Of a DNA stretch of 64,000 nucleotides, positions 8,538 through 48,025 are shown piece after piece. How positions within the stretch are numbered: position 1 is the stretch's first letter; every line of letters starts with the position of its first letter. The translations under genes and the position numbers were made by a program. Source of the DNA: Patescibacteria group bacterium UBA6220 (lineage in GTDB: Bacteria > Patescibacteriota > Minisyncoccia > Minisyncoccales > Minisyncoccaceae). The notes under the pieces are model-generated. The model saw nothing but the letters and a program-made list of their open reading frames with translations. It searched no databases and was not told the DNA's origin. Location of the stretch: the NCBI GenBank assembly GCA_002421745.1, contig DISC01000006.1, positions 87,610-151,609 of the forward strand, in the 5' to 3' direction.

Positions 8538-8804
8538 TTAATTTTTAAATAAATTTTTAATCCAATGCCAGTGTAAAATCAGATGCACCACAATAACTCC
8601 GATAAAAATTAAAGAGCAAACTGTGTGAATGTCTGCCCAATTATAACGAGTCAATCCTAAAAATAAATTAACATCTAGCTCTCCTCTTCCCCCTTGAAAA
8701 CCTTGACCTTGAGGTAAAATTTTCCAAAGAATAACTCCGGAAAAAAAAGAAGTTAACATAAATAAAAAACCAAAAATATTAACAATTGTATTTATTTTTT
8801 TCAT
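8538..8804 (-). CDS. Small 2-3 TM membrane protein (DUF4405-like, tentative)
   Basis: 88 aa. Its stop codon abuts the ATPase start (8537/8538). His-rich last helix (HLILHWHW). Confidence 0.45.
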   Translation of the reverse strand: MKKINTIVNIFGFLFMLTSFFSGVILWKILPQGQGFQGGRGELDVNLFLGLTRYNWADIHTVCSLIFIGVIVVHLILHWHWIKNLFKN

Positions 8805-8870
8805 ATATTTTTATTATATCATAAACCAAAAGCCACCTAAAGGTGGTTTCTTTTTTTTATTAAAATTTTA

Positions 8871-26889: not shown

Positions 26890-26933
26890 AGTATATGAAT
26901 ATATATTAATATGCTTTTCTAGCGATGTCAAAC

Positions 26934-26995
26934 AAAAAAACCGACAAAAGTCGGTCTTTAAAATATTTGGCTCGGAGGTGGAACAAACTTGGAAC
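26934..26995. repeat. ~60-bp direct repeat, copy a (terminator hairpin plus TTGGCTCGGAGGTGGAACAAAC)
   Basis: Near-identical to 27533-27593 (1 indel, 2 mismatches by eye). Contains the hairpin accgac-aaaa-gtcggt. Confidence 0.85.
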
Positions 26996-26997
26996 CT

Positions 26998-27510
26998 TTA
27001 TCGCTTTAAACCATAAACATAACTTTCATTTCCATCCTTCCATTTAAAAACACCCGCGTCTTTAAATCCTAATTTTTGATGAAATAACCTAGAAACTTTA
27101 TTCAATGGATTTTTTGATGTTATCGCTTTAAAATTTTTAATTTTTGCGTTGTTAAATAATTCTAAATAAAGGTTCGTTCCTATGTTGTTCATTTGACAAG
27201 ATGGATTTACGGCTACTTGAAATATGTAAATAAATTCTTCATTTAGATAACTATCTATAAGATAAGAACCCAATTCATCTGTCTTATCTATAAATCTACT
27301 AGAATAAGCCATTAAGAATCCTACAATTTTATTTTCCAACTCGTAAACATAACAATAATCATAATTATTTATCATGTTTTCATAAAAAGATTCTGATAAA
27401 TTCTCACTCATCAAAAATCCCCCATCAATATTTTTAATATTTTTAATATGAACCGATTCAATAATCTCTATTATCGTCTTAGCATCTTTTGTGGTTGCTT
27501 TTCTTATCAT
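26998..27510 (-). CDS. GNAT-family N-acetyltransferase
   Basis: Acetyl-CoA motif QVAVNPSCQMNNIGTNLY. ATG at 27510. Confidence 0.75.
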   Translation of the reverse strand: MIRKATTKDAKTIIEIIESVHIKNIKNIDGGFLMSENLSESFYENMINNYDYCYVYELENKIVGFLMAYSSRFIDKTDELGSYLIDSYLNEEFIYIFQVAVNPSCQMNNIGTNLYLELFNNAKIKNFKAITSKNPLNKVSRLFHQKLGFKDAGVFKWKDGNESYVYGLKR

Positions 27511-27532
27511 TGAATAAATAATAACATAAAAC

Positions 27533-27593
27533 AAAAACCGACAAAAGTCGGTCTTTAAAATATTTGGCTCGGGAGGTGGAACAAACCAGGAAC
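27533..27593. repeat. ~60-bp direct repeat, copy b
   Basis: See 26934-26995. The two copies bracket exactly the GNAT gene. Confidence 0.85.
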
Positions 27594-27629
27594 TTTTCTT
27601 TTAGAAAATACTAGCCTATCTAAAGAATA

Positions 27630-30088: not shown

Positions 30089-30928
30089 TTAATAAATATT
30101 GTCATTTGCCCAGTCCCCTTTTTCGCATTTTTCCCAATCATAAACACTCTCGTTATTTATCAACCACTCGTGGCTACGCTGAATAACAATCCCACCAAAT
30201 ACTTTTTTATTACCTTGATTAACTAAATATTTTTGTAATGATTCGGCTTTAGCTTTTGTATATGTCTTACCATCACGATCTCCAACGTCTTTAACTTCAA
30301 GTAAACCAAGACGCCCATCTGAAAATTTAACCAAATAGTCAGGATAAAAAGTACTTATGCTTCCTGCATATTCATACTTAATGCCAAAATATTCCTGTTT
30401 ATTTTCACTATTCTTCCACCACCAATTTAATTTTGAACTATTTTTGTTCAACAAATCTTCAAATTCTCTTTCTGGTTTAGATCTGTCGATATTTAAATAG
30501 CATGGTTCGTAAACATATTTTTTAGCTTTTACGGTTTCGTCATCATATTCGTTATAAAATTGCTCTGGCTTAATATCAAAAGTATATCTTTGGTCACTCT
30601 CTTCTATACGCTAATGAACCTCTTTTTCTTTAACAATAACATACTGATCAATCGCTTTATTTAGAATATGCCCAAAATGGACTATATTCTTATTATTTAA
30701 AAACATCTTTTGCGTTAAAAGCGAAGGATCTTTCCAATGCTCAGCACCAAGAACTTTATTAAACCAAAGATAAATAGCTGTTTTAACTACTGGAACAGAA
30801 CGCTTAATATTTTTAAATGGTCCAAGGTTGTCTTTAATGAACTGCTCAAAGAAAACAGCTAAGTCATCAACAGCTACATTTAATTTAGCTAAATTATCGG
30901 CATCAATTTTACCTTCTAATTCATCAAA
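30089..30928 (-). pseudogene. 5'-truncated, nonsense-interrupted nuclease gene (PD-(D/E)xK C-terminal domain)
   Basis: The frame is open from 30928 with no start codon. An in-frame TAG lies at 30611-30613 (...KEKEVH*RIEESDQ...). The C-terminal part carries YPDYLVKFSDGRLGLLEVKD. Confidence 0.6.
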
Positions 30929-32745
30929 CTAACAGACCAGGAATTAACGATATTTTGTGTATTTACAACCCAGTCATCAGAGTTGCTAATACTATTTGCA
31001 CTTTCAGCAATATCGTTAATTAAATTTTTCAAACTATTGTGTGTGAATTTTTTATTCGCCTCACGGACTTGCCTGAGTGTTTTTAATAATTCAACAAATT
31101 GTTTTATTGTCAGTGGTGCAATTTTTTGCTTACTACCTTTATAACCAATGGTGTTGGCAATATAGAAAGTTTCAGCACTGTCAGTATGAATTGTTGGTGC
31201 GATGAAGATGCAATAAGCATTTAAATGTGAGTTTTCAAAATCACGTAAATGTCGCATAACTGGCTGTCCTTCATTAAACCATTGATCACGACCATTCAAC
31301 ATTGTAACTTCGCAGATCATATTAAAGTTATCATAAAAACATTCGATATCGGCCATGCCACCAGGGGCAGTGGATGTTGGTTCGTTATCATCTCCGACTG
31401 GATAATTAGGCTTAATTTCCTTTGCGTCATTAAGAGCATGAAGTCCCATTGTTGAGAGATATTCGAGCATTAAAGCACGGTTTTCAAATTCAAAAATGCC
31501 CTCCAGTTGCTCAATGTACTGAGTAATTGATGAAACTGGTTGAGACTTGATGTGGTTATCTTTTTCTTGTAATTCTTTGCGAGATTCTCGTAAATCATTA
31601 ATATACAACACTAAATCATTTTCAGACATTACTGATATGTCCTTCTCGCTTTCAATCACTAAACCAAGATTGCTCTGTAGTTCAATTACATCTTTATAGA
31701 CATCACTAGCGATTTTCGATAATTTATCCTTTGTTTGCCAAGGCAATATAGGCAAATTGTCGTCAGACATATAGGAAACATATTCGTTTCTATCTGCAAA
31801 ATGCTTTGGTTTATAAAATTCGCTTTCAAATAAAGCTTCGATCTCAGTACTGCGGTTTAACTCCAAATCAATGTAAAAACCATTGCCACGAATACGGATA
31901 AACTTTGTTAGACGAAAATACCTAATTGCATTATCTCCATAATCCTTCAGGTTTGTGAGCAGTTTATTGATTGCAGCCTGTTTGCTTGTGCCTAAAAAGT
32001 TGGCTGCAAATTGTTTACGATAATCATCCCGAATCTTTTTTCGTTCCTGTTTTGTTTTTCCCTTTTGCAAGGCTCGTAATTCAACAATTTGTTTTGCATA
32101 ATTTTCAATATCTGTATACTTAACTAATGATGGAACGAATAATGAAAACTCTCGTTTACTAATTCCAGCTGCATTATTTCCATTCTCGGTTTCAATCCTA
32201 TTGACTTCGTTTATTAACTTAAGGGTTGCAACAAAAGGCACAACATTATAATCACCCTTATCCGTAAAATCATTACTAGCTGGGTTTGGTATCTGCCATT
32301 TTATAAAAGACCTTAGAAATACATCACCAGCGTCTTTTTCGCTAGCTATAAGCTTCTTCCCAAGATCGGTTATTTTAACTATGCCATTATCTATAATTAC
32401 AAATCCAAATTTTGTAAGAGGATTTATAGATTGACGACCACGCATTGCAAAGTCAGTATAGTTCTTTAACCTTATAATTTCATCTATCGTATCGTCATCA
32501 ATCTCACTATCGGTATCATTTATCAATTTTATAATATATGTTGTTAGCCCATTATAAAATTGAGCACTACCGAAACCATATAGACGATTCTTGATTAAAA
32601 GTTTCTGATAATTTTCCTGATTGGCTTTGTCCCAAGTTTTATTTTCAAGGGGTTTTAGGGCAACCAAAAAATCCCTCAGACGCTCTGGGTTTCTAACGGT
32701 TGTTGTAATTGACCATGCTTTCAACATAATTTCAGTATGCCACAA
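30916..32745 (-). CDS. AlwI-family type IIS restriction endonuclease
   Basis: 609 aa. N-terminus WSITTTVRNPERLRDFL, then INPLTKFGFV...ITDLGKKL, FLRSFIKWQIP, DNAIRYFRLT, and catalytic region MADIECFYDNFNMICEVT. These match my recollection of BstNBI/MlyI/PleI/AlwI-type enzymes. Confidence 0.65.
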   Translation of the reverse strand: MWHTEIMLKAWSITTTVRNPERLRDFLVALKPLENKTWDKANQENYQKLLIKNRLYGFGSAQFYNGLTTYIIKLINDTDSEIDDDTIDEIIRLKNYTDFAMRGRQSINPLTKFGFVIIDNGIVKITDLGKKLIASEKDAGDVFLRSFIKWQIPNPASNDFTDKGDYNVVPFVATLKLINEVNRIETENGNNAAGISKREFSLFVPSLVKYTDIENYAKQIVELRALQKGKTKQERKKIRDDYRKQFAANFLGTSKQAAINKLLTNLKDYGDNAIRYFRLTKFIRIRGNGFYIDLELNRSTEIEALFESEFYKPKHFADRNEYVSYMSDDNLPILPWQTKDKLSKIASDVYKDVIELQSNLGLVIESEKDISVMSENDLVLYINDLRESRKELQEKDNHIKSQPVSSITQYIEQLEGIFEFENRALMLEYLSTMGLHALNDAKEIKPNYPVGDDNEPTSTAPGGMADIECFYDNFNMICEVTMLNGRDQWFNEGQPVMRHLRDFENSHLNAYCIFIAPTIHTDSAETFYIANTIGYKGSKQKIAPLTIKQFVELLKTLRQVREANKKFTHNSLKNLINDIAESANSISNSDDWVVNTQNIVNSWSVSLMN

Positions 32746-32748
32746 AAA

Positions 32749-34737
32749 TCAGTAATTTGTAATAAGCACCTCTATTGTACTATTGTTTTTTGCAGTAGAG
32801 TGATAATTTGAATTTTTGTAGTTATAGCTTAATTTATGAACTCTATAACCATTCTTTTTTGCCCAATTCTTCATTATTTCATTAATCTTGCCTTTATGCT
32901 CTAAGACATTTGATAGAGCAAACCTAATCTCTTTCTTATCCAGTCTCGTTAAAAGTGCATATAAGTCCTTTTCATCCTTCTCCGTCCATCCTCCCATTTC
33001 GTTATAACTAGCAAGTCCTAGTAAATATGGTGGATCCAGATATACAAAATCATCATTTTTTAATGACATCTTTTCAACATCACGAAAATCGTAATTTTTG
33101 AATACTATTCTTTTCTCATTTGATATTTGATTGAAAGCTGCAACGTTTTTCCTTGAGCTTCCATTGTAGTCCCGTTTTCCTACTGGTAAATTAAAATCAC
33201 CATTGGAATTAAATCTAATTTGATTATTGAAAGAATATAAAACAAGCACCAACAACAAATCGATTCTTGTTTTTTCTTTATTAAATTCACCACGAAGCTT
33301 TAGGAAAGCACTTTTATTATATTGTCCAAGACCAGATGAACTATCAACATTGTAATGCTCATAGCCCTTTATATAGCTTTGACTTAATCCAAAATCATCT
33401 ATGATATCAATAACTCTTTGATTCAAATCTTCAAAATTATCATCTTGTATTAACTTCAATAAGTTCACTACATATCGATTTTTTTCAATGCAAACTATAT
33501 TTTTTGCTGTAGCATTAATTCCGACATTTGCACCACCAGAAAAAACATCATAAAAAGTTTTTATGTCTTTTGGGAATAGTTTTGCTATTTGTGGTAAAAG
33601 TTTATGTTTTCCACCTGTATAGTTTAGGGGGGATTTCACAAAGCCAACTTGGACAGGGTTATTTTTTGAAGCAATTACAGACTTGTTGCTTTTAGAAACA
33701 ATACTCACCTTACACAGAAATATACGCTCTTTCAGGTCGTCTTTGCTTGATTTTCCAGTAGTAAATTGCTTAAAATTGGTCTCAAAAATCTTCACTTCAC
33801 CTCGCCGTTTTAATGCAGACAAAATTTCATGATCACTGATACGGGATTGCGATCGAGCATTGCCAGCAGTCCCCATATCGTTATAAGAAACAAGGATATA
33901 TTTTGCATTAATGTTGTCTATCAAATCGCCGAATGCAACACCTGCTGATTTCATGTTGTATTTGCTTTTGATATGGGAGCGGTCAATCTTTTTTGCAACA
34001 CCAAAAACCTTTTCTTTTTTCCAAGTAGCGATGTTTTCTAGTAAATGATAAGCATCCGAGTATTGTCTAGAATTATATGGGGGGTCAATATAAACAACGT
34101 CTGCTTTTATTTTTTTTACCAATTCATTAGCGTCATCTTTATAAATTTCAGCAGAATAGCGAGAGTTTGTTATATCAAGGGGGAGTAGGAACAGTTTTTT
34201 ATTTGGAATATCAATTTTTCGATATGCGTCATAATGGCCGACCGTGTTGGCAATTTTATCAAATGCGTAAATCAGAGATGTTAGTAAATAAGATTTTTCT
34301 CTATTGGTAATTATTTTTTCTTCAAATAACTTTTCGATGTCATCCCTTATAATTCCTATCTTTTTAGCATTTTCTGCGTCAAAATAAGTATCTGAAAAGT
34401 TTTTTGAAAAATAATTTTCACCGTATTTTTTTATTTCAATGTCGTTATAGTACCTTAATTGTTCTTTTAACTTTCCTTCCCTGATTGAGTCCTTTCCAAA
34501 AAAAGCTGTATATACATGAGAATTTGAATCTAAAATATCATTTACAATAATCTTTGATCGATTATAAAAATGATTAGCAACAGTGCCAGTTCCAGCAAAA
34601 ATATCTGCAAAAGAATTAAACTCTATATTCTCAGCTTCAAGTATGCTATCTATAAATGATAACAGCTTGGTTTTAGAACCAAGATAGCGTCTTTGAGTTA
34701 TACAGATTTTTTTATTTCCAAAATATGCATCGTTCAT
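32749..34737 (-). CDS. Fused double N6-adenine DNA methyltransferase
   Basis: Two complete MTase halves. First: RRYLGSKTKLL, FADIFAGTGT, YIDPPY. Second: NYTGGKHKLLPQI, FYDVFSGGANVG, YLDPPY. It lies 3 nt upstream of the endonuclease gene. Confidence 0.85.
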   Translation of the reverse strand: MNDAYFGNKKICITQRRYLGSKTKLLSFIDSILEAENIEFNSFADIFAGTGTVANHFYNRSKIIVNDILDSNSHVYTAFFGKDSIREGKLKEQLRYYNDIEIKKYGENYFSKNFSDTYFDAENAKKIGIIRDDIEKLFEEKIITNREKSYLLTSLIYAFDKIANTVGHYDAYRKIDIPNKKLFLLPLDITNSRYSAEIYKDDANELVKKIKADVVYIDPPYNSRQYSDAYHLLENIATWKKEKVFGVAKKIDRSHIKSKYNMKSAGVAFGDLIDNINAKYILVSYNDMGTAGNARSQSRISDHEILSALKRRGEVKIFETNFKQFTTGKSSKDDLKERIFLCKVSIVSKSNKSVIASKNNPVQVGFVKSPLNYTGGKHKLLPQIAKLFPKDIKTFYDVFSGGANVGINATAKNIVCIEKNRYVVNLLKLIQDDNFEDLNQRVIDIIDDFGLSQSYIKGYEHYNVDSSSGLGQYNKSAFLKLRGEFNKEKTRIDLLLVLVLYSFNNQIRFNSNGDFNLPVGKRDYNGSSRKNVAAFNQISNEKRIVFKNYDFRDVEKMSLKNDDFVYLDPPYLLGLASYNEMGGWTEKDEKDLYALLTRLDKKEIRFALSNVLEHKGKINEIMKNWAKKNGYRVHKLSYNYKNSNYHSTAKNNSTIEVLITNY

Positions 34738-34825: not shown

Positions 34826-34856
34826 AGAGACCGGCCCCTGACGGGAACCGGTCTCT
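34826..34856 (-). terminator. Strong GC hairpin plus TTTGTT; probably the original tRNA-Asn terminator
   Basis: 9-bp stem agagaccgg/ccggtctct. It lies just 3' (minus sense) of the displaced tRNA-Asn 3' fragment. Confidence 0.55.
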
Positions 34857-34894
34857 TAGAATCCCTCACTATTTGACTCCGGTGGTAGGATTCG
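34837..34894 (-). repeat. Displaced copy of the tRNA-Asn 3' end plus 3' flank (direct repeat DR2, distal copy)
   Basis: Aligns to 47488-47546 with about 6 mismatches and 1 indel. Includes tgactccggtggtaggattcg versus tggctccggtggtaggattcg in the tRNA. Confidence 0.75.
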
Positions 34895-35219: not shown

Positions 35220-35921
35220 TTAATCTATAATTAATTCTTCCTTTTCAATATCTTTCTTTAATAGATTTATCCCCTTCCAGGCTATTGGATGACATCTTTT
35301 TATATGATCTTTTTCTTTGCAAAAGCAAGGCGTATGCCCCTTAATGTACGACTTTCTCTGTAATGCATTTTTAATGTACGGCCAAACAGTCTTATCGTGC
35401 TTTAATTTTGCTATACACTCCCCAGCTTTCTTGCTGTTATAAAATTTAGCGTAAGACTCTAGAATACCCACAATGCCATGCGCATATTCATCCCACGGCC
35501 ATGCGTTTTTGAGAGAAAAAAATTCTTGCCCATATAGAAAAGGAATAACTAGTCGTTGGAAAAAATCTACAAACTTAAATCCTGGTTTTAGAAACTCTTC
35601 CTCCTCAAGGGGATTACAAAGACACGCCGTTTTGTCGGATTGATTAATATGGCGATCGGGTATTGTATCTATGTTTTTCACGCAAAGCGCCGGAAGTTCC
35701 GAAAATGACTTATCGATTCTTTCCTTTATAATAATTTCGAATCTGCCATTTAGTATCGTGCCTCCAATTGTATTACTCGTTCCGCCTTCAATAATCAAAA
35801 ATTCGTTAGTCTTATCATTATAGGCGGCTGTAAATTCTAAAGTTCCGGAAACTACACCGTGGTCTTCTTTCAGTCCCGGATACTTTTGAGCCAACCATTC
35901 TTTATCCTGATTAGTCAACAT
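35220..35921 (-). CDS. Cys-rich protein with SEC-C-type zinc motif and a possible UBC/E2-like core
   Basis: ATG at 35921, 1 nt after the MBL gene stop. C-terminal CFCKEKDHIKRCH fits C-x-C-x8-C-H (SEC-C pattern). ELPALCVKNIDTIPDRHINQSDKTACLC resembles the E2 signature P..P.v.f....HPN....G.iCL. Confidence 0.55.
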   Translation of the reverse strand: MLTNQDKEWLAQKYPGLKEDHGVVSGTLEFTAAYNDKTNEFLIIEGGTSNTIGGTILNGRFEIIIKERIDKSFSELPALCVKNIDTIPDRHINQSDKTACLCNPLEEEEFLKPGFKFVDFFQRLVIPFLYGQEFFSLKNAWPWDEYAHGIVGILESYAKFYNSKKAGECIAKLKHDKTVWPYIKNALQRKSYIKGHTPCFCKEKDHIKRCHPIAWKGINLLKKDIEKEELIID

Positions 35922-35922
35922 A

Positions 35923-36960
35923 CTACAATGAACACCAAGGCGATTTGGGAGAAAAAGGCTTCGGCGAAGAGAACCCCTCATTTCTCAGAGATGACGTCTT
36001 AGCTGATTTATCATCCTTATCACCATTATAAATCTTTAAACTGCCACCGGCGTCGATATCGACAATAATGCTTTTTTCATCTTCTCCTAAATGGTAGGTA
36101 TTTTCTTTGCTGACGTAATCTTCATATAGCTCCAACGCCTCATCATCCGGATGGTCATGTGGGCTATCTTCTTGCTTTGGAGCGCTTATTATCAAATAAT
36201 CTGGCTTTATATTATCCATGTGATCGAGATAAACATCGTCGTCTTCCTTTTCTTTATCCTTGAAGAAAGAAACTGATCCATGGTGGGACGCGCTCAAAAC
36301 ATCGCTCTTCAAATCATCTTTATAATAATCAGTTATGTGCTCCTTCCATGCTGCTTTGTCAGAATCTCCAGTTAGAAGTATGCTTTTGTCTTTATAGATA
36401 AATTTAATAACTCCGCATTGTTCGTGTATTCTTTTAGCTCTTTGGTCGGGTGTTTCGTCATCTATCTCTTCACAGACATATTTCGCTGGCGACAATACTT
36501 GAAAATCAATATCGCCGATTTTTCTATCGGTCTTAGATTTCTCCTCTTTGTCAGTATGTAGAACATTCTTATCATTACTGCCTCTCAAATAAAAAACATT
36601 AGAATCGCCGACTTTCTTAATAACCTCATTCAATTCCTTAAATGCGTCCTCATGCTCTTTTCCTGGTGTGTGTCCAGAATGCCAAACCTCACTAATACAA
36701 TCTTTGATTTCCTTGACCCCGGCAATGTGGTCTTTGTGGGGGTGGGTATTAACAAAAATAATGTCGTCTCTATCTATTTCTTTGAAAATCAAAGGAATAT
36801 CCTCGATCAATTCGTCATCTTTCTTATAGTTAGAATCGACTAGTAAATACCTGTGTGAATCTCCATCGGGAACAATCATCAAGGTAGACTCACCCTGACC
36901 AACATACAAGAATATTGTCCTGAAAATTCCCTTATCTGGGAAGAATATATCTTTTTCCAT
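35923..36960 (-). CDS. Stand-alone ComEC-like metallo-beta-lactamase-fold hydrolase
   Basis: VGQGESTLMIVP, THPHKDHIAG (HxHxDH) and SASHHGS motifs, as in the ComEC C-terminal MBL domain. Confidence 0.75.
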   Translation of the reverse strand: MEKDIFFPDKGIFRTIFLYVGQGESTLMIVPDGDSHRYLLVDSNYKKDDELIEDIPLIFKEIDRDDIIFVNTHPHKDHIAGVKEIKDCISEVWHSGHTPGKEHEDAFKELNEVIKKVGDSNVFYLRGSNDKNVLHTDKEEKSKTDRKIGDIDFQVLSPAKYVCEEIDDETPDQRAKRIHEQCGVIKFIYKDKSILLTGDSDKAAWKEHITDYYKDDLKSDVLSASHHGSVSFFKDKEKEDDDVYLDHMDNIKPDYLIISAPKQEDSPHDHPDDEALELYEDYVSKENTYHLGEDEKSIIVDIDAGGSLKIYNGDKDDKSAKTSSLRNEGFSSPKPFSPKSPWCSL

Positions 36961-44046: not shown

Positions 44047-44388
44047 ATTTTTAAAATAGTTAATAAATTGACAGATTATGTCGACAAATAATCCTTCCTG
44101 TGGCGTTTTATATACAAAAAGCCCACCACAGGTAGTGACCGAAGCCACTCATACCGGTTTCCCGATATGGCGATCAAGCGACCCCATGATGGGTTCTTTA
44201 TTCTTGATCGACTTTTGACCATGCCCTTGAAATTCAAAGGTTTAGGCCTGCTATTAAATTGTGATTACATAATAGCTCAAAAGCTAAAAATTGTGTAGTC
44301 TTTCAGTCTCCAGTTTGTCTACATCTAGGGTCTGGACTTCCTTGCCATATTGCGACATCTGTATAGGTAAGAGAATAAAAGACAAAAT

Positions 44389-45663
44389 ATGACAGACACA
44401 AAGTACTGCCTTTATGCAAGGAAATCAACAGAATCAGATGAAACCCAGGCTCTTTCCATCGATTCTCAAATCAAGGAAATGCTAGAATTGGCGAAAAGAG
44501 ACAACCTTAATGTAATCGAAATAAAACAAGAAAAGCACTCGGCCAAAGAAGTAGGCCAAAGGCCGGTTTTTAATGAGGTCATCAAAGAGATAAGAGAGGA
44601 AAAGTTTAATGGAATTTTAACATGGGCGCCAGATAGAATAGCCAGAAATGCTGGAGACTTGGGAACGGTCGTAGATATGATGGACAACGGAAAGCTGAAA
44701 GAAATACGAACCTACGGACAATCTTTCGGCAATTCCCCTAACGATAAGTTCCTATTAATGATCCTCGGATCCCAAGCCAAGCTGGAAAATGACAATAAGT
44801 CGGTAAACGTCAAAAGAGGCATGAAAGCCAAGTGTGCCATGGGATGGCGTCCTGGAATGGCACCTCTGGGGTATTTAACGAACAGAGAGGGCATTAAGGG
44901 CCAAAGAAAGATATTTATAGACACGGTCAGGTCTCCCATAATCAAGCAAATGTTCGAAAAAACGGCTTTCGAGAAATACAGCGGAAGGAAGCTGTATAAT
45001 TGGCTGATATCAATCAATTTCGCAACCAGAACCGGAAAGAGAGTGACATTAAGTTCAGTGTACACCATATTGAAGAACAGCTTCTATTATGGAAAGTTCG
45101 AATACCCTGTCGGAAGCGGATCGTGGTATGACGGCCTGCATGAACCGATAATTACCAAAGATTTATTCGATAAAGTCCAAGAGCAAATAACAAGCCAGAA
45201 TGCCAGATGCGAAGACAAGGAATTCGCCTTCACTAGATTGATGAAATGCGGATTATGCGGATCAGGAATAACCGGAGAAGAGAAGCATAGAAAGCTCAAG
45301 AATGGGTCATTCAATGTACACGTCTATTATGGGTGCACCAGATACAACGACACCTATTGCAAGTGCGGATACATAAGAGAGGAGGATTTGATTGAGCAGC
45401 TTTCCGGAATGATGGACGAGCTCATCATGGACGGATCGGAGGTAAAGCAAAAAATAGAATGTGAAATTAAAAGATACAAGAAATTCAGGTACGGCGTCCT
45501 AGGACTGAAAGAATCTAATGAAAAAATAGAAGAAACTCTGGATCACAAAAAGTACGCTCGATATATCCTATCGCAAGGAACAATCGAAGAAAAAAGGGAG
45601 TTGATATCCTTCCTTAAGGGAAAGATATTTATAGCAAACGGGAAAGTCTCTATTGGCGATTGA
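44389..45663 (+). CDS. Large serine recombinase
   Basis: N-terminal resolvase catalytic region YARKSTESDETQALSIDSQ and DRIARN. Recombinase domain. Zn-ribbon CGLCGSG...YYGC. Confidence 0.85.
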   Translation: MTDTKYCLYARKSTESDETQALSIDSQIKEMLELAKRDNLNVIEIKQEKHSAKEVGQRPVFNEVIKEIREEKFNGILTWAPDRIARNAGDLGTVVDMMDNGKLKEIRTYGQSFGNSPNDKFLLMILGSQAKLENDNKSVNVKRGMKAKCAMGWRPGMAPLGYLTNREGIKGQRKIFIDTVRSPIIKQMFEKTAFEKYSGRKLYNWLISINFATRTGKRVTLSSVYTILKNSFYYGKFEYPVGSGSWYDGLHEPIITKDLFDKVQEQITSQNARCEDKEFAFTRLMKCGLCGSGITGEEKHRKLKNGSFNVHVYYGCTRYNDTYCKCGYIREEDLIEQLSGMMDELIMDGSEVKQKIECEIKRYKKFRYGVLGLKESNEKIEETLDHKKYARYILSQGTIEEKRELISFLKGKIFIANGKVSIGD

Positions 45664-45664
45664 A

Positions 45665-47272
45665 TTATAAGTCTATATGTTCTATCGGAGTTGCGGTGTA
45701 CCCAACGACTTCGTCCGCTTCTGCAAAACTTTTAGATCCAGTAGCGATAACCCCAACAACCTCATTTTTGTTATTAAGCAACGGACTCCCACTCATCCCT
45801 CCTGTAAAAGGCTTATCTAATACAATTCTGGGAAGATAAAATCTTTCTTTGAAAGAAACTACTTTTGTTTCATAGAAAAAAGGTTCTTTGTTCGAATACA
45901 ATAAAGGAAATCCTATACCCAACAAAGAATCTCTTTTATTTACTTGATTATTGCTTTTTTTAAATTCCGGGAATCTAATACCTTCTTCAAATTGTAGAAT
46001 AGCTAAATCAATGCCAAATCTATTCCTTAAAAGATGGAGAGGGTATTTTTTACTAGGATTTTTTGGTCTATATGCAATAATTTTACCACCAATTCCAATA
46101 ACATGAGAACATGTTATCATTCCATATCCCTCCAATAAAAACCCCGTTCCCTGTTCCCAATCATTTACCTCTATAATCCAAATATATTCTTCTAAGGTTT
46201 TATTTTCATTAAGCTCAAGTTCGGGGAAACCATTTTTTGCTATGCTATTATATTTATTAATTAATTTCTTATAAATATTGTCTCTACTTCCTCTTACCAT
46301 TCTTACGAAATTAATTTTTCCTAATATTACCTGCTCAAAATTCCCGTCCGTTTTGTATGGACTTTTATCTTTATTTTTTCTACATAAAAAATACTCTGAT
46401 TTAGATTTTTCGATCCCATAATGCTCCCAATTATATAACATAACTCTAATCTCTCTAATATAATCCCTTTTGATGTTCGGAAATTTATTAGTAGTTAGTC
46501 CAGTAACTTCTTGTCTCGCTGAAGGAAACGACATCCTCGTCTTTGCTCTATTGATCGAAAACCAATTAGAAGCAATAATTGCTTCTAAGTCTTTTCCCAG
46601 AATAATACTTGATCTCTCTACGGTGGCAATATTTTTAGGAAAATTACCGTTCCAGCTAGAAAAAGTTATATCATCAGCATATCGCGTGTAAAGAATGTTA
46701 TTTTTGTTAGCTAGTTTTTGCATTTGTCCATCCAATCTAGAACAAATCAAGTTAGAAATAATTGGAGATGTCGGCGCTCCTTGAGGTAACTCATTGTTTA
46801 GCGTACAAATTTGTGCTAAAACTGCTGCAACTTTTTTAGGCAAACTAAATGGCTCAGAAGTGAAAAGTCCCATAACTCTAGGAAAAGTTATCGATGGAAA
46901 AAAATTTTCTAAATCAAAATTAAGAACAACCTTTTTACCACAATGAACAGCGGCATTTGTCACAATGCTTTTATCCTTACAAAATCCATGTACCGACGGT
47001 CTTAATCTGGATCCATAAACTAAACTTAAAACCACTGATAATTTTTGCTGTATAATTTTTAAAGAAGTAATTGGGGTGCGTATAGTCCTGGTACCTCCTG
47101 ATTTCTTTTTTATTTCAAAAGATTTATAATTTAATTCTATCTTTTTACCATAAATCAAATAAAGCAAAGTCTTTTTATTAACATCTAGTAGCTCACAAAA
47201 AGCATCAATATTATTGAGTTTTAAAAATTTATCCAATAATTGACTAGCGTTAAATTTTAATTCTTTATCCAT
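45665..47272 (-). CDS. Retron-type reverse transcriptase fused to a C-terminal trypsin-like serine protease
   Basis: KKSGGTRTIRTP, NAAVH, LNFDLENFFPSI, LPQGAPTSPIISN, YADD, NRAKT, VTGLTT. Then protease His (TCSHVIG), Asp (DLAIL) and Ser (GGMSGSPLLN). ATG at 47272 with an AAGGA RBS is preferred over the TTG at 47314. Confidence 0.8.
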   Translation of the reverse strand: MDKELKFNASQLLDKFLKLNNIDAFCELLDVNKKTLLYLIYGKKIELNYKSFEIKKKSGGTRTIRTPITSLKIIQQKLSVVLSLVYGSRLRPSVHGFCKDKSIVTNAAVHCGKKVVLNFDLENFFPSITFPRVMGLFTSEPFSLPKKVAAVLAQICTLNNELPQGAPTSPIISNLICSRLDGQMQKLANKNNILYTRYADDITFSSWNGNFPKNIATVERSSIILGKDLEAIIASNWFSINRAKTRMSFPSARQEVTGLTTNKFPNIKRDYIREIRVMLYNWEHYGIEKSKSEYFLCRKNKDKSPYKTDGNFEQVILGKINFVRMVRGSRDNIYKKLINKYNSIAKNGFPELELNENKTLEEYIWIIEVNDWEQGTGFLLEGYGMITCSHVIGIGGKIIAYRPKNPSKKYPLHLLRNRFGIDLAILQFEEGIRFPEFKKSNNQVNKRDSLLGIGFPLLYSNKEPFFYETKVVSFKERFYLPRIVLDKPFTGGMSGSPLLNNKNEVVGVIATGSKSFAEADEVVGYTATPIEHIDL

Positions 47273-47282
47273 ATTTTCCTTA

Positions 47283-47423
47283 AAAAGAGAGCCCGCAGAG
47301 TTCTCCCTTTGCAAAAGCGGTCATACTATTACAACACGGTAATAACATGAAGGGGCACTAAAGTAAACCGTTTACTATTCTATTGCGAAACACAATAGCA
47401 ATCAAATCGCAGAGCTCTCTTTT
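47283..47423 (-). ncRNA. Candidate retron msr/msd non-coding RNA
   Basis: 10-bp inverted repeat AAAAGAGAGC (47423-47414, minus sense) / GCTCTCTTTT (47292-47283) encloses about 120 nt with three hairpins (47380-47398, 47363-47375, 47327-47344). It lies immediately upstream of the RT start. Confidence 0.4.
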
Positions 47424-47487
47424 AAAAGAAAATTTGTCTTTATACTACCCCTAAAAATATAATAAATCAAACTAAACAAAACCGCCT

Positions 47488-47546
47488 ACCTGACGGTAAC
47501 CGGTCTCTCAGAACCCCTCACTGGTTGGCTCCGGTGGTAGGATTCG
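47488..47546 (-). repeat. Direct repeat DR2, proximal copy (tRNA-Asn 3' end plus 38-nt flank)
   Basis: Aligns with 34837-34894. Confidence 0.75.
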
Positions 47547-47600
47547 AACCTACAACCTAATGCTTAACAGGCATCCGCGCTACCATTGCGCCACACCGGA
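47526..47600 (-). tRNA. tRNA-Asn (anticodon GTT), CCA encoded
   Basis: Manual cloverleaf fold: acceptor TCCGGTG/CACCGGA; D stem GCGC/GCGC; anticodon stem GATGC/GCATT with loop CTGTTAA; T arm GTAGG-TTCGAAT-CCTAC; discriminator G then CCA. 75 nt. Confidence 0.9.
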
Positions 47601-47845
47601 ATATGTTGTTTTAAAAATTGTCGCCCTCTATACGTTTTAAGTTGTTTTTCTCTAATCAGCGCCTCTTTTCGATCCCTAACGTCTTCTTTATGTACCAACT
47701 CCCAAGCACCATCAAATCGAGCAGTATAACCACCTTTGAATTCTTTGCTGTTATGAAGCATTAATCTTTTGTCTATATCGCTCGTTTGACCAATATAGAT
47801 CTTATTATTTTTACGATTATAAATTGCGTAAACATAGTAATTCAT
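47564..47845 (-). CDS. GIY-YIG nuclease-family small protein
   Basis: YYVYAIYNRKNNKIYIGQTSDIDKRLMLHN with a downstream R...E core. Its last 12 codons and stop codon overlap the 5' half of tRNA-Asn. Confidence 0.7.
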   Translation of the reverse strand: MNYYVYAIYNRKNNKIYIGQTSDIDKRLMLHNSKEFKGGYTARFDGAWELVHKEDVRDRKEALIREKQLKTYRGRQFLKQHIPVWRNGSADAC

Positions 47846-48025
47846 AAAGCACCGCATACCTTCACTGATTAATAAAGCGCCACTCCGCCAGCTGGCGGAG
47901 GAATATAAAATTTAAAGAACACGATAACAATATTATACACAAAATATAACTTTTTTCAACCTCTTTAAATTTAACCTATTTCACACATTAAAAGCCAGCA
48001 TTTAGATGGCTTTTAATACAGCAGT

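Follow-up and report, generated by a model that had tools for sequence, protein, structure and literature searches.

The window analysed here, a stretch of 64,000 nucleotides, comes from a MAG of Candidatus Paceibacterota (CPR) with a tiny, reduced genome. It contains a gene that encodes a reverse transcriptase (RT) fused to a serine protease, which is immediately preceded on the same strand by an msr-msd-type ncRNA and, further upstream, by a tRNA-Asn gene, and is followed by a convergent gene for a large serine recombinase (Table 1). The stop codons of the RT-protease and recombinase genes are 1 bp apart. The statement in the initial annotation that no separate effector gene is present is accurate for ORFs of at least 50 aa, none of which was found between the RT gene and either the recombinase gene or the tRNA gene. 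An alternative TTG start at 47314, which would extend the protein to 549 aa, was rejected; it overlaps the ncRNA and is not supported by homologues.

Table 1. Features of the retron locus and of the surrounding integrated element (positions in the window)
Feature	Position	Strand	Remarks
RT-protease fusion gene, type XI retron protein	45665-47272	minus	535 aa, ATG start
RT palm/fingers domain, aa 54-259	46496-47113	minus	Pfam RVT_1, Foldseek
NAAVH	46943-46957	minus	within RT domain
YADD	46670-46681	minus	within RT domain
VTG	46490-46507	minus	within RT domain
Trypsin_2 / HtrA-like serine protease domain, aa 375-508	45749-46150	minus	Pfam, E 1e-14
Triad codons	H390 46103-46105, D422 46007-46009, S494 45791-45793	minus	invariant in 40 homologues
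msr-msd-type ncRNA, 167 nt	47270-47436	minus	directly upstream of RT gene; fold, covariation
a1 arm of a1/a2 helix	47408-47434	minus	covariation
a2 arm of a1/a2 helix	47272-47297	minus	holds Shine-Dalgarno AAGGA, ends on A of ATG
msr hairpin P1, CUAUUGUG-UUU-CGCAAUAG	47380-47398	minus	covariation
Hypervariable msd region, long hairpin	47298-47361	minus	presumed template, ~60-70 nt msDNA
Weak promoter-like site TTGATT-17-TAGTAT	47442-47470	minus	just upstream of a1, read from sequence
tRNA-Asn (GTT), integration target	47526-47600	minus	ARAGORN; Rfam tRNA model, 74 bits
Direct repeat, tRNA side: last 21 nt of tRNA-Asn + 37 nt	47489-47546		element boundary
Distal direct repeat	34837-34894		other element boundary; perfect terminator hairpin follows
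Large serine recombinase	44389-45663	plus	Pfam Resolvase + Recombinase + Zn_ribbon_recom

The Pfam search identifies RVT_1 (E 5e-22) and Trypsin_2 domains in the protein, and the PADLOC model RT-Protease_XI matches it end to end (579 bits, aa 14-522). All the RT and protease motifs that had been listed from the sequence are present in this ORF, namely KKSGG (aa 56-60), NAAVH (106-110), FFPSI (124-128), LPQGAPTSP (162-170), YADD (198-201), NRAKT (241-245) and VTGLTT (256-261) in the RT part, and TCSHVIG (387-393), DLAIL (422-426) and GGMSGSPLL (491-499) in the protease part. In an alignment of 40 sequences of the family, the RT residues D200 and D201 (YADD), N106 and H110 (NAxxH), and T257 and G258 (VTG) are invariant, and so are H390, D422 and S494, in line with the ordered His/Asp/Ser triad of the Trypsin_2 type described previously. 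An identical protein is encoded in six independent assemblies. The comparison with a 92%-identical copy at another locus, L167, gives dN/dS of 0.057 in both domains; strong purifying selection acts on both the RT and the protease.

The assignment of the RT to the retron type, which had been proposed from motifs, is upheld by profile and structure comparisons. A PADLOC search started with the RT part alone gives the highest score to type XI (447 bits), followed by type XII (415 bits) and type I-C (374 bits); the 25 best PADLOC matches are all retron RT models, and UG, Abi and DRT models are absent among these 25. A phmmer search of the PDB sequences identifies retron Eco2 as the best match (E 3e-54); group II intron RTs are detected only at about 1e-9. 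Similarly, in a Foldseek search with the AlphaFold (AF2) model of the fusion protein (pLDDT 89.3), the top matches of the N-terminal part are Eco2 structures (9lm3/9i2f, E 4e-29), aligned over about 360 columns at 35% identity, and the Ec86 and Eco7 RT structures are also matched. The scores with the NCBIfam profiles group_II_RT_mat (TIGR04416; 62 bits) and Drt2 (36 bits) are far below the respective cut-offs of 300 and 390. An Rfam search around the gene detects no group II intron RNA, and no template/variable repeat pair typical of a DGR was found: apart from the 58-nt boundary repeat, the element contains no direct repeat of more than 24 nt. Besides YADD, the protein contains both regions specific to retron RTs, X (NAxxH) and Y (VTG). 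Thus, as judged by profile scores, the RT groups with the retron RTs of clade 8. Models of other fused retrons cover only a part of the protein: alignments of the type I-C models are confined to the RT part (not beyond aa 24-364), with no C-terminal Toprim match; NCBIfam retron_Ec67_fus scores 340 bits against the cut-off of 450; and Retron_TIR_antiphage scores 373 bits against the cut-off of 600 over aa 23-347 only, with no TIR domain found by Pfam.

The C-terminal part, for which structure prediction had been suggested as a check, is modelled confidently as a chymotrypsin fold. In the Foldseek search, this part matches DegS, DegP, MucD and HtrA1 (E of about 1e-9, rmsd 3-4 A), on which the model superposes, and the PDB sequence search with the fusion protein also returns proteases of the HtrA/DegS/DegP/MucD family. 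As in these proteins (MEROPS S1C), the C-terminal 190 aa form a double-barrel chymotrypsin fold with an ordered His-Asp-Ser triad; unlike in them, the domain is fused to an RT. Neither a signal peptide nor a PDZ domain was found in the Pfam scan or in the AF2 model, and the protease is presumably cytoplasmic.

The third retron component, the msr-msd ncRNA, was absent from the initial annotation and is the strongest added evidence for a complete retron. Given that a search of the 44-49 kb region with Rfam 15 (E-values up to 10) gave no retron or msr match, this RNA was defined de novo. The region is spanned by a 23-nt inverted repeat and folds with an MFE of -52 kcal/mol (z = -4.56), and the DNA similarity to loci encoding 57-60%-identical RTs starts at its 5' edge, that is, at a1. 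The a1/a2 helix consists of 26 pairs. In covariance-model alignments, which are fitted to the structure so that the pairing counts are inflated, this helix is paired in 91.8% of cases among 9 close relatives and in 90.5% among 30 independent ones; the corresponding values for P1 are 100% and 93.8%. In the set of 30, compensatory changes occur at every a1/a2 pair and 8 of the 8 P1 pairs covary. Overall, 90.9% of the cells are paired in the 9 sequences, compared with 43-54% in slid controls; the slid controls for the 30 sequences give 35-49%. A MAFFT alignment of 6 sequences, which is not structure-fitted, also contains 12 pairs with compensatory changes. The six closest sequences also suggested another msr hairpin, P2, and, within the msd, the small helix 4. 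These two are paired in only 58% and 69% of cases, respectively, in the 30 independent sequences and, being unsupported there, were left out of the RNA model.

The covariance model places the ncRNA immediately upstream of the RT gene in about 40 related loci, and of the 35 matches outside the seed, 34 occupy this position on the same strand; many of the more distantly related type XI loci show no upstream match to the model. The msd varies among the relatives in both sequence and length (64-86 nt), with each variant folding into hairpins between conserved flanks; the msd hairpin is the presumed template for reverse transcription. Two guanosines located where the a1/a2 helix ends on its inner side, G47410 and G47408, are the candidates for the branching residue, a choice that follows the retron architecture known from Eco2, where the corresponding residue is rG15 (PMC12405507). 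The promoter-like site upstream of a1 matches the consensus in 8 of 12 positions, one match below the threshold of the promoter scan, and can only be considered a putative promoter. The covariance model also has matches just in front of RT genes without the protease; therefore, the core formed by a1/a2 and P1 seems to be common to the fusion and to neighbouring protease-less RTs.

Two direct repeats of 58 nt, 90% identical and 12,652 nt apart from start to start, delimit a 12.65-kb element, with the retron located just inside it. The position at the edge of an island, between an integrase and tRNA-Asn, that had been noted from the sequence is confirmed by these repeats. The same element is present at L167 in a different flank, with the similarity between the two loci starting at 47558. 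This phage-like element includes a terminase, and no capsid or portal gene is recognisable in it. The 1-bp gap between the stop codons raised the question of whether the element had inserted into the 3' end of the RT gene; this interpretation was discarded because, according to the repeats, the retron lies within the element, and it is also contradicted by the match to the class model, which extends nearly to the C-terminus of the protein.

A survey of 70 RT-protease loci reveals the same layout, with a convergent serine recombinase, in 5, including one from a Saccharibacteria genome. Apart from the recombinase, no conserved neighbour gene was found within 2.5 kb on either side of the fusion gene in these 70 loci. 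Given that the remaining 65 loci have no such recombinase nearby and that the contexts are varied, with the close relative L169 located among restriction-modification genes and others in further contexts, the family is not tied to a single element. Fusions of this type are encoded in other CPR genomes as well, namely in Paceibacterota, Parcubacteria and Saccharibacteria. Thus, of the earlier remark that the class lacks a characterised mechanism and is not known from CPR-like genomes, the second part does not stand. The first part does: the searched literature contains no published mechanism for type XI retrons, including the target of the protease and the way it is held inactive, and no defence, toxicity or protease-substrate experiments on any of them were found there.

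The statement that RT-protease fusions are a listed class of retron effectors proved correct; type XI was defined as an RT of clade 8 fused to a trypsin-like protease (PMC7736814). The protein from the window matches the class HMM (PADLOC PDLC02959/02960) over the full length, with no separate effector gene, and differs from type XI in nothing essential. What sets it apart from the surveyed members is the CPR host and its presence as cargo of an element integrated at tRNA-Asn. The type XI retrons included in an experimental census, Mestre-1122 from Sphingomonas, Mestre-1143 from Nitrospira and Mestre-1163 from Ruminococcus (10.1101/2024.01.25.577267), belong to the same class, as compared by description, and come from Proteobacteria, Nitrospirae and Firmicutes, respectively, rather than from CPR. 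In that study, type XI ncRNAs were validated for RT-DNA production, the assays addressing RT-DNA production and genome editing as opposed to defence or protease function (10.1101/2024.01.25.577267). By contrast, two computational surveys could not identify an ncRNA for the canonical, protease-fused type XI (PMC7736814; 10.64898/2026.05.14.725207); here, it is clearly recognisable, in the relatives as well. The RTs of type XII and neighbouring groups of clade 8 are closely related to the RT from the window, as reflected in the score of the type XII models, but where the protein from the window keeps the canonical fused protease, these systems have either a TIR domain or WYL or DnaB_C genes as separate accessories.

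Eco2 (Ec67; type I-C1, RT-Toprim; PDB 9lm3, 9i2f, 9s1f) is the closest solved structure to the fusion protein. It also belongs to clade 8, combines the RT and the effector in one polypeptide and, according to the published description, shares the plan of the ncRNA, in which an a1/a2 helix is combined with a single short msr stem-loop and one long hairpin in the msd, of 67 nt in Eco2 and about 64 nt here. The effector domains differ: that of Eco2 is a Toprim RNase, whereas the protein from the window has an HtrA-like serine protease. For Eco2, a trimeric msDNA cage, the trigger DenB and the cleavage of tRNA have been demonstrated (PMC12916289, PMC12405507); for the RT-protease, the corresponding cage, trigger and cleavage steps can be proposed only by analogy.

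Taken together, these observations make it probable that the locus is a complete canonical type XI retron, in which one transcript comprises the ncRNA and the clade 8 RT fused to an HtrA-like protease that would be released in an Eco2-like manner. The mechanism is predicted from established retron biology, especially that of Eco2. The single transcript would carry the msr-msd ncRNA followed by the coding sequence of the RT-protease polypeptide. The RT would bind the msr hairpin, prime synthesis from the 2'-OH of one of the two candidate guanosines at the inner end of a1/a2, and copy the msd hairpin into a branched msDNA of about 60-70 nt. The scaffold of msDNA and RNA might then keep the fused protease inactive, possibly within an oligomer, until a phage factor degrades, modifies or binds the msDNA. 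The protease set free on infection would cleave host or phage proteins and so abort the infection, and the retron, as cargo, could shield both the element and the host cell from other phages.

This interpretation is compatible with a less probable one, in which the main beneficiary of the retron is the mobile element and not the host. The retron could then be an addiction or stabilisation module, with the loss of the element stopping the supply of msDNA and thus releasing the protease, or else a weapon against competing phages or satellites of the same host. The location within the direct repeats beside the recombinase, the joint transfer with the recombinase into different flanks exemplified by L167, and the 5 loci with the shared layout, Saccharibacteria included, are compatible with such a role, as is the description of retrons as tripartite toxin/antitoxin systems (10.1101/2020.06.22.160168). 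However, a role of this kind does not readily account for the 65 of the 70 loci that lack the recombinase or for the close relatives found next to restriction-modification genes or in other contexts.

A somewhat less likely alternative is that the protease is not itself the toxin but switches on a latent pro-effector encoded elsewhere, as in nuclease-protease pairs and the proteolytically activated death effectors of other defence systems. Trypsin-like proteases that activate pro-toxins have been reported as widespread in defence (PMC12799240, PMC12642450), and the protease domain alone matches the PADLOC model named LmuA (E 5.5e-11). Nevertheless, the 70 loci share no neighbour that could be such a partner, no ORF separates the RT gene from its neighbours in the window, and PADLOC treats RT-Protease_XI as a single gene.

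It is highly unlikely that the gene is a decaying or inactive remnant of horizontal acquisition in a reduced genome. The incompleteness of the element as a phage would be in keeping with decay, but the ORF is intact, the catalytic residues are all conserved, the low dN/dS applies to both domains, the same protein recurs in the six assemblies, and the ncRNAs of L167 and of the window differ by paired changes in the a1/a2 helix. Even less credible is the chance fusion of a protease to an RT of a group II intron, DGR, Abi/UG/DRT or other lineage: the generic RT motifs are common to all lineages and Pfam reports only RVT_1, but the PADLOC and NCBIfam scores, the lack of intron RNA and of template/variable repeats, the invariant NAxxH and VTG, and the retron-type a1/a2 ncRNA all point to a retron.

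Returning to the type XI assignment, the retron from the window is an ordinary member of a known, mechanistically unstudied class. Because type XI is established and its RT-DNA production has already been reported, it represents a new member rather than a new class, and the discovery is incremental given that standard defence-finder profiles classify this retron and that other CPR genomes carry the fusion. A broader interpretation, in which an ncRNA missed by the two surveys, an Eco2-like oligomer of the protease restrained by msDNA, and the carriage by recombinase-driven elements of CPR bacteria all hold jointly, is tentative and rather unlikely to be correct in every part. In this interpretation, the RNA family, which combines a long a1/a2 helix with one conserved msr hairpin and a hypervariable msd hairpin, would also accompany neighbouring clade 8 RTs, and the carriers would be a family of tRNA-targeting, serine-recombinase-driven phage-like elements of CPR bacteria. 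If it were true, the locus would be a compact, tractable defence or addiction module from an uncultured lineage with reduced genomes.

The locus is a clean, compact example of its class, in which about 1.8 kb accommodate the promoter-like site, the 167-nt ncRNA and a single ORF. The structure of the RNA is well supported, the protein model is confident, and the locus could be synthesised directly. The defence and mobile-element biology of Paceibacterota is known almost solely through metagenomes, and the locus described here documents the carriage of a retron on a small integrative element in these bacteria.

The initial annotation described the ORF as a retron-type RT fused to a trypsin-like protease, with no separate effector ORF beside it. 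This reading holds: every motif it listed is found at the expected place, and an ORF scan detects no ORF of at least 50 aa between the gene and either neighbour, the recombinase or tRNA-Asn. Pfam searches identify RVT_1 (aa 54-259, E 5e-22) and Trypsin_2 (aa 375-508, E 1e-14); in a 40-sequence family alignment, D200/D201 (YADD), N106/H110 (NAxxH), T257/G258 (VTG) and the protease triad H390/D422/S494 are invariant. The ATG coincides with the start of this alignment; an alternative TTG start 42 nt upstream gives the 549-aa form used in some public annotations, and this extension would cross the ncRNA. Comparison with the 92%-identical copy at the related locus L167 shows that both domains are under strong purifying selection (dN/dS: RT 0.057, protease 0.056).

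Features of the locus and its surroundings (window coordinates)
Feature	Position	Strand	Remarks
RT-protease ORF	45665-47272	minus	ATG start, 535 aa
tRNA-Asn(GTT)	47526-47600	minus	Neighbour, same strand as RT-protease gene
Large serine recombinase	44389-45663		Neighbour, convergent on RT-protease gene
a1 arm	47408-47434		ncRNA part
P1 hairpin	47380-47398		ncRNA part
Variable msd region	47298-47361		ncRNA part
a2 arm	47272-47297		Holds Shine-Dalgarno sequence, ends at start codon
Direct repeat, tRNA copy	47489-47546		58 nt
Direct repeat, distal copy	34837-34894		58 nt
LOOT RNA (Rfam RF03000)	44134-44248	minus	Between peptidoglycan-binding gene and serine recombinase
Two distal-edge ORFs	35220-36960	minus	Overlapping ends
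Restriction-modification pair	30916-34737	minus	Directly outside distal repeat
97-aa ORF	47564-47857	minus	GIY-YIG-like by eye
GGTTCCAAGTTYGTTCCACCTCCGAGCCA repeat, three copies	~26931-26999, 27517-27597, 8797-8853		Intergenic, followed by terminator hairpin

The PADLOC RT-Protease_XI models match the protein end to end (aa 14-522) with 579 and 577 bits, and all 25 of its best PADLOC matches are retron RT models. Standard defence-system profiles can already classify the locus. Searched without the protease, the RT part keeps type XI as its top match (447 bits), followed by type XII (415) and type I-C (374), and the type XI models again come top for the protease part alone. NCBIfam models of the TIR- and Ec67-fusion retrons align with the RT part only, below their cut-offs; those of the group II maturase (62 bits, cut-off 300) and Drt2 (36 bits, cut-off 390) fall far below theirs. 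Among relatives of solved structure, retron Eco2/Ec67, an RT-Toprim fusion, is the best sequence match (E 3e-54), followed by Ec86, Kva2, Ec78 and Ec83, whereas group II intron RTs reach only ~1e-9. AlphaFold2, given the 40-sequence alignment, produces a confident model (mean pLDDT 89.3, pTM 0.74, no segment below 50). In a Foldseek search of the PDB, its N-terminal ~360 residues match Eco2 (E 4e-29, 35% identity), then Ec86 and Eco7/Ec78; the C-terminal ~190-200 residues match MucD, DegS, DegP, DegQ, HtrA1 and Rv3671c (E ~1e-9, rmsd 3-4 A). The refuting conditions that the initial annotation named for RT affiliation and protease fold were thus checked, and both outcomes favour its reading of a retron RT joined to a chymotrypsin-type protease.

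A third retron component, an msr-msd ncRNA absent from the initial annotation, is found between the tRNA and the start codon. This region holds a 23-nt inverted repeat (87% complementary, arms 121 nt apart), and the 171-nt stretch folds with z = -4.56, a long helix at its ends enclosing small hairpins and one long hairpin. DNA similarity to three related loci, L168, L171 and L172, whose RTs share only 57-60% protein identity with that of the window, starts at 47423-47427, in the 5' arm of this helix. When six loci are aligned with plain MAFFT, the 5' half is highly conserved, the middle is hypervariable in sequence and length, and the 3' end is conserved, a pattern that would be expected of msr, msd and a2. 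From this alignment, which was made without fitting to a structure, RNAalifold derives 42 pairs, and compensatory double changes occur in 12 of these. A covariance model built from the aligned sequences and iterated once matches L021 (Parcubacteria), L088 (Paceibacterota) and L087 at E 1e-24 to 1e-28, and ~30 further loci with weaker scores; 34 of the 35 non-seed plus-strand matches lie directly upstream of an RT gene on the same strand. Among the downstream RTs, several have no protease, and the a1/a2-plus-P1 core thus appears common to neighbouring clade-8 RTs. The structure is supported by pairing counts, which are inflated because alignments derived from the model follow its structure: 90.9% of cells are paired among nine close sequences, with 23 pairs showing double changes (43-54% and 4-9 pairs in slid controls), and among 30 independent sequences 90.5% for a1/a2 and 93.8% for P1 (35-49% in slid controls), with compensatory changes in all 34 a1/a2 and P1 pairs. 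The unfitted RNAalifold result and the positional specificity are independent of such fitting. The second small hairpin (58% paired in the 30-sequence set) and an inner msd helix (69%) are unsupported and are not claimed; the msd region measures 64-86 nt across nine relatives, with hairpins predicted in each. Rfam contains no family matching this ncRNA. Its plan matches the published description of the Eco2 RNA, in which an a1/a2 helix and a branching rG15 are combined with a single msr stem-loop and an msd hairpin of 67 nt (PMC12405507). All those defining features of type XI that could be tested are present at the locus.

The retron was placed by the initial annotation at an island edge, and direct repeats, 90% identical, indeed bracket it, so that it sits inside the element. 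The repeat comprises the last 21 nt of tRNA-Asn and 37 nt more; the 12.65 kb between the copies has a G+C content of 0.33-0.40, compared with ~0.30. The element encodes, in order, a 253-aa ORF containing several Cys/His residues, a 345-aa protein that weakly matches phage-tail PHROGs, a LexA-like S24 repressor, a ParB-methylase, small and large terminase subunits, a peptidoglycan-binding protein, LOOT RNA, the serine recombinase and the retron. The lack of any recognised capsid or portal gene makes the element a degraded prophage or a satellite-like island. In L167 the same retron and recombinase are present with 88% DNA identity; the similarity ends at 47558 and the flank beyond differs, which supports mobility of the element.

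Several further features were observed in and around the element. At its distal edge, the 345-aa ORF has an HPHKDH motif (PHROG matches at E 6e-10) and the 253-aa ORF is without annotation. Long tRNA-derived direct repeats are the usual footprint of tyrosine integrases; despite the repeat, the element's sole recombinase is of the large serine type. The post-tRNA motif AGTGnGnnGTTCTGnnGACCG, which L168 shares, may belong to the attachment site. The GGTTCCAAGTTYGTTCCACCTCCGAGCCA repeat also occurs in L167 (1091-1156, 1720-1756), where it marks the exact start of the retron-bearing element at the place of tRNA-Asn in the window. The LOOT RNA (77 bits, gathering score 46) recurs within a few kb of the RT-protease in L168 (10380-10495) and L172 (2292-2411), with 78 and 90 bits, which suggests that it belongs to mobile elements of this kind. 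Outside, the 97-aa ORF (YVYAIY...IYIGQT) extends ~37 nt into the tRNA-Asn gene, ending in its 5' half, so that its annotated 3' end overlaps the tRNA gene. The restriction-modification pair, an AlwI-family endonuclease (298 bits) and a 662-aa D12-class adenine methyltransferase, adjoins the element, making the tRNA-Asn neighbourhood a small defence cluster.

The flanking RpoD and DnaG are recorded by NCBI under a Candidatus Paceibacterota MAG, so the CPR attribution of the host is right; the fusion itself is not special to this genome, given that other CPR genomes have it (Paceibacterota P0071/L088, Parcubacteria L021 with 52% identity, and Saccharibacteria L061). The RT-protease fusion is widespread: both domains are present in all of the best 120 database clusters, with hosts including Acidobacteriota, Planctomycetota, Nitrospira, Pseudomonas and Clostridia. 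A human faecal 'Bacteriophage sp.' contig (MT838275.1, 6131 nt) encodes an RT-protease cut by the contig end (79% query coverage, 34% identity); database sequences deposited as phages thus include type XI-like fusions as well.

Type XI was defined by Mestre et al. 2020 as a fusion of a clade-8 RT with a trypsin-like protease, with no recognisable ncRNA (PMC7736814). Several type XI retrons were tested by Khan et al. 2024, who list clade 8, type XI among their validated ncRNAs (10.1101/2024.01.25.577267); a 2026 preprint offers computational ncRNA models for protease-less type XI-like lineages only (10.64898/2026.05.14.725207). A literature search found no papers on type XI defence, triggers or substrates. 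Computed at the present locus are an architecture with intact catalytic sites, purifying selection, a conserved structured ncRNA, a single gene and carriage by a mobile element. By analogy with retron biology and Eco2 (PMC12916289), the RT would start at a priming guanosine where the a1/a2 helix ends on its inner side and make an msDNA of ~60-70 nt, the protease would be restrained in an msDNA-dependent way, and a phage factor would release it, so that proteolysis would abort infection. The restraint may differ from that in Eco2. The module may also serve chiefly to stabilise the element or to defend it. The only recurrent neighbour family within 2.5 kb of 70 full-length RT-protease loci is the serine recombinase (5 loci, one in a Saccharibacteria genome). 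L168 shares the window's layout of tRNA (here Arg), ncRNA, RT-protease and convergent recombinase. The survey of neighbours (up to 2.5 kb, 70 loci) reveals no conserved hidden effector; the protease may activate a distant pro-toxin. To the type XI retrons, the present analysis adds an ncRNA with covariation support and exact element boundaries.
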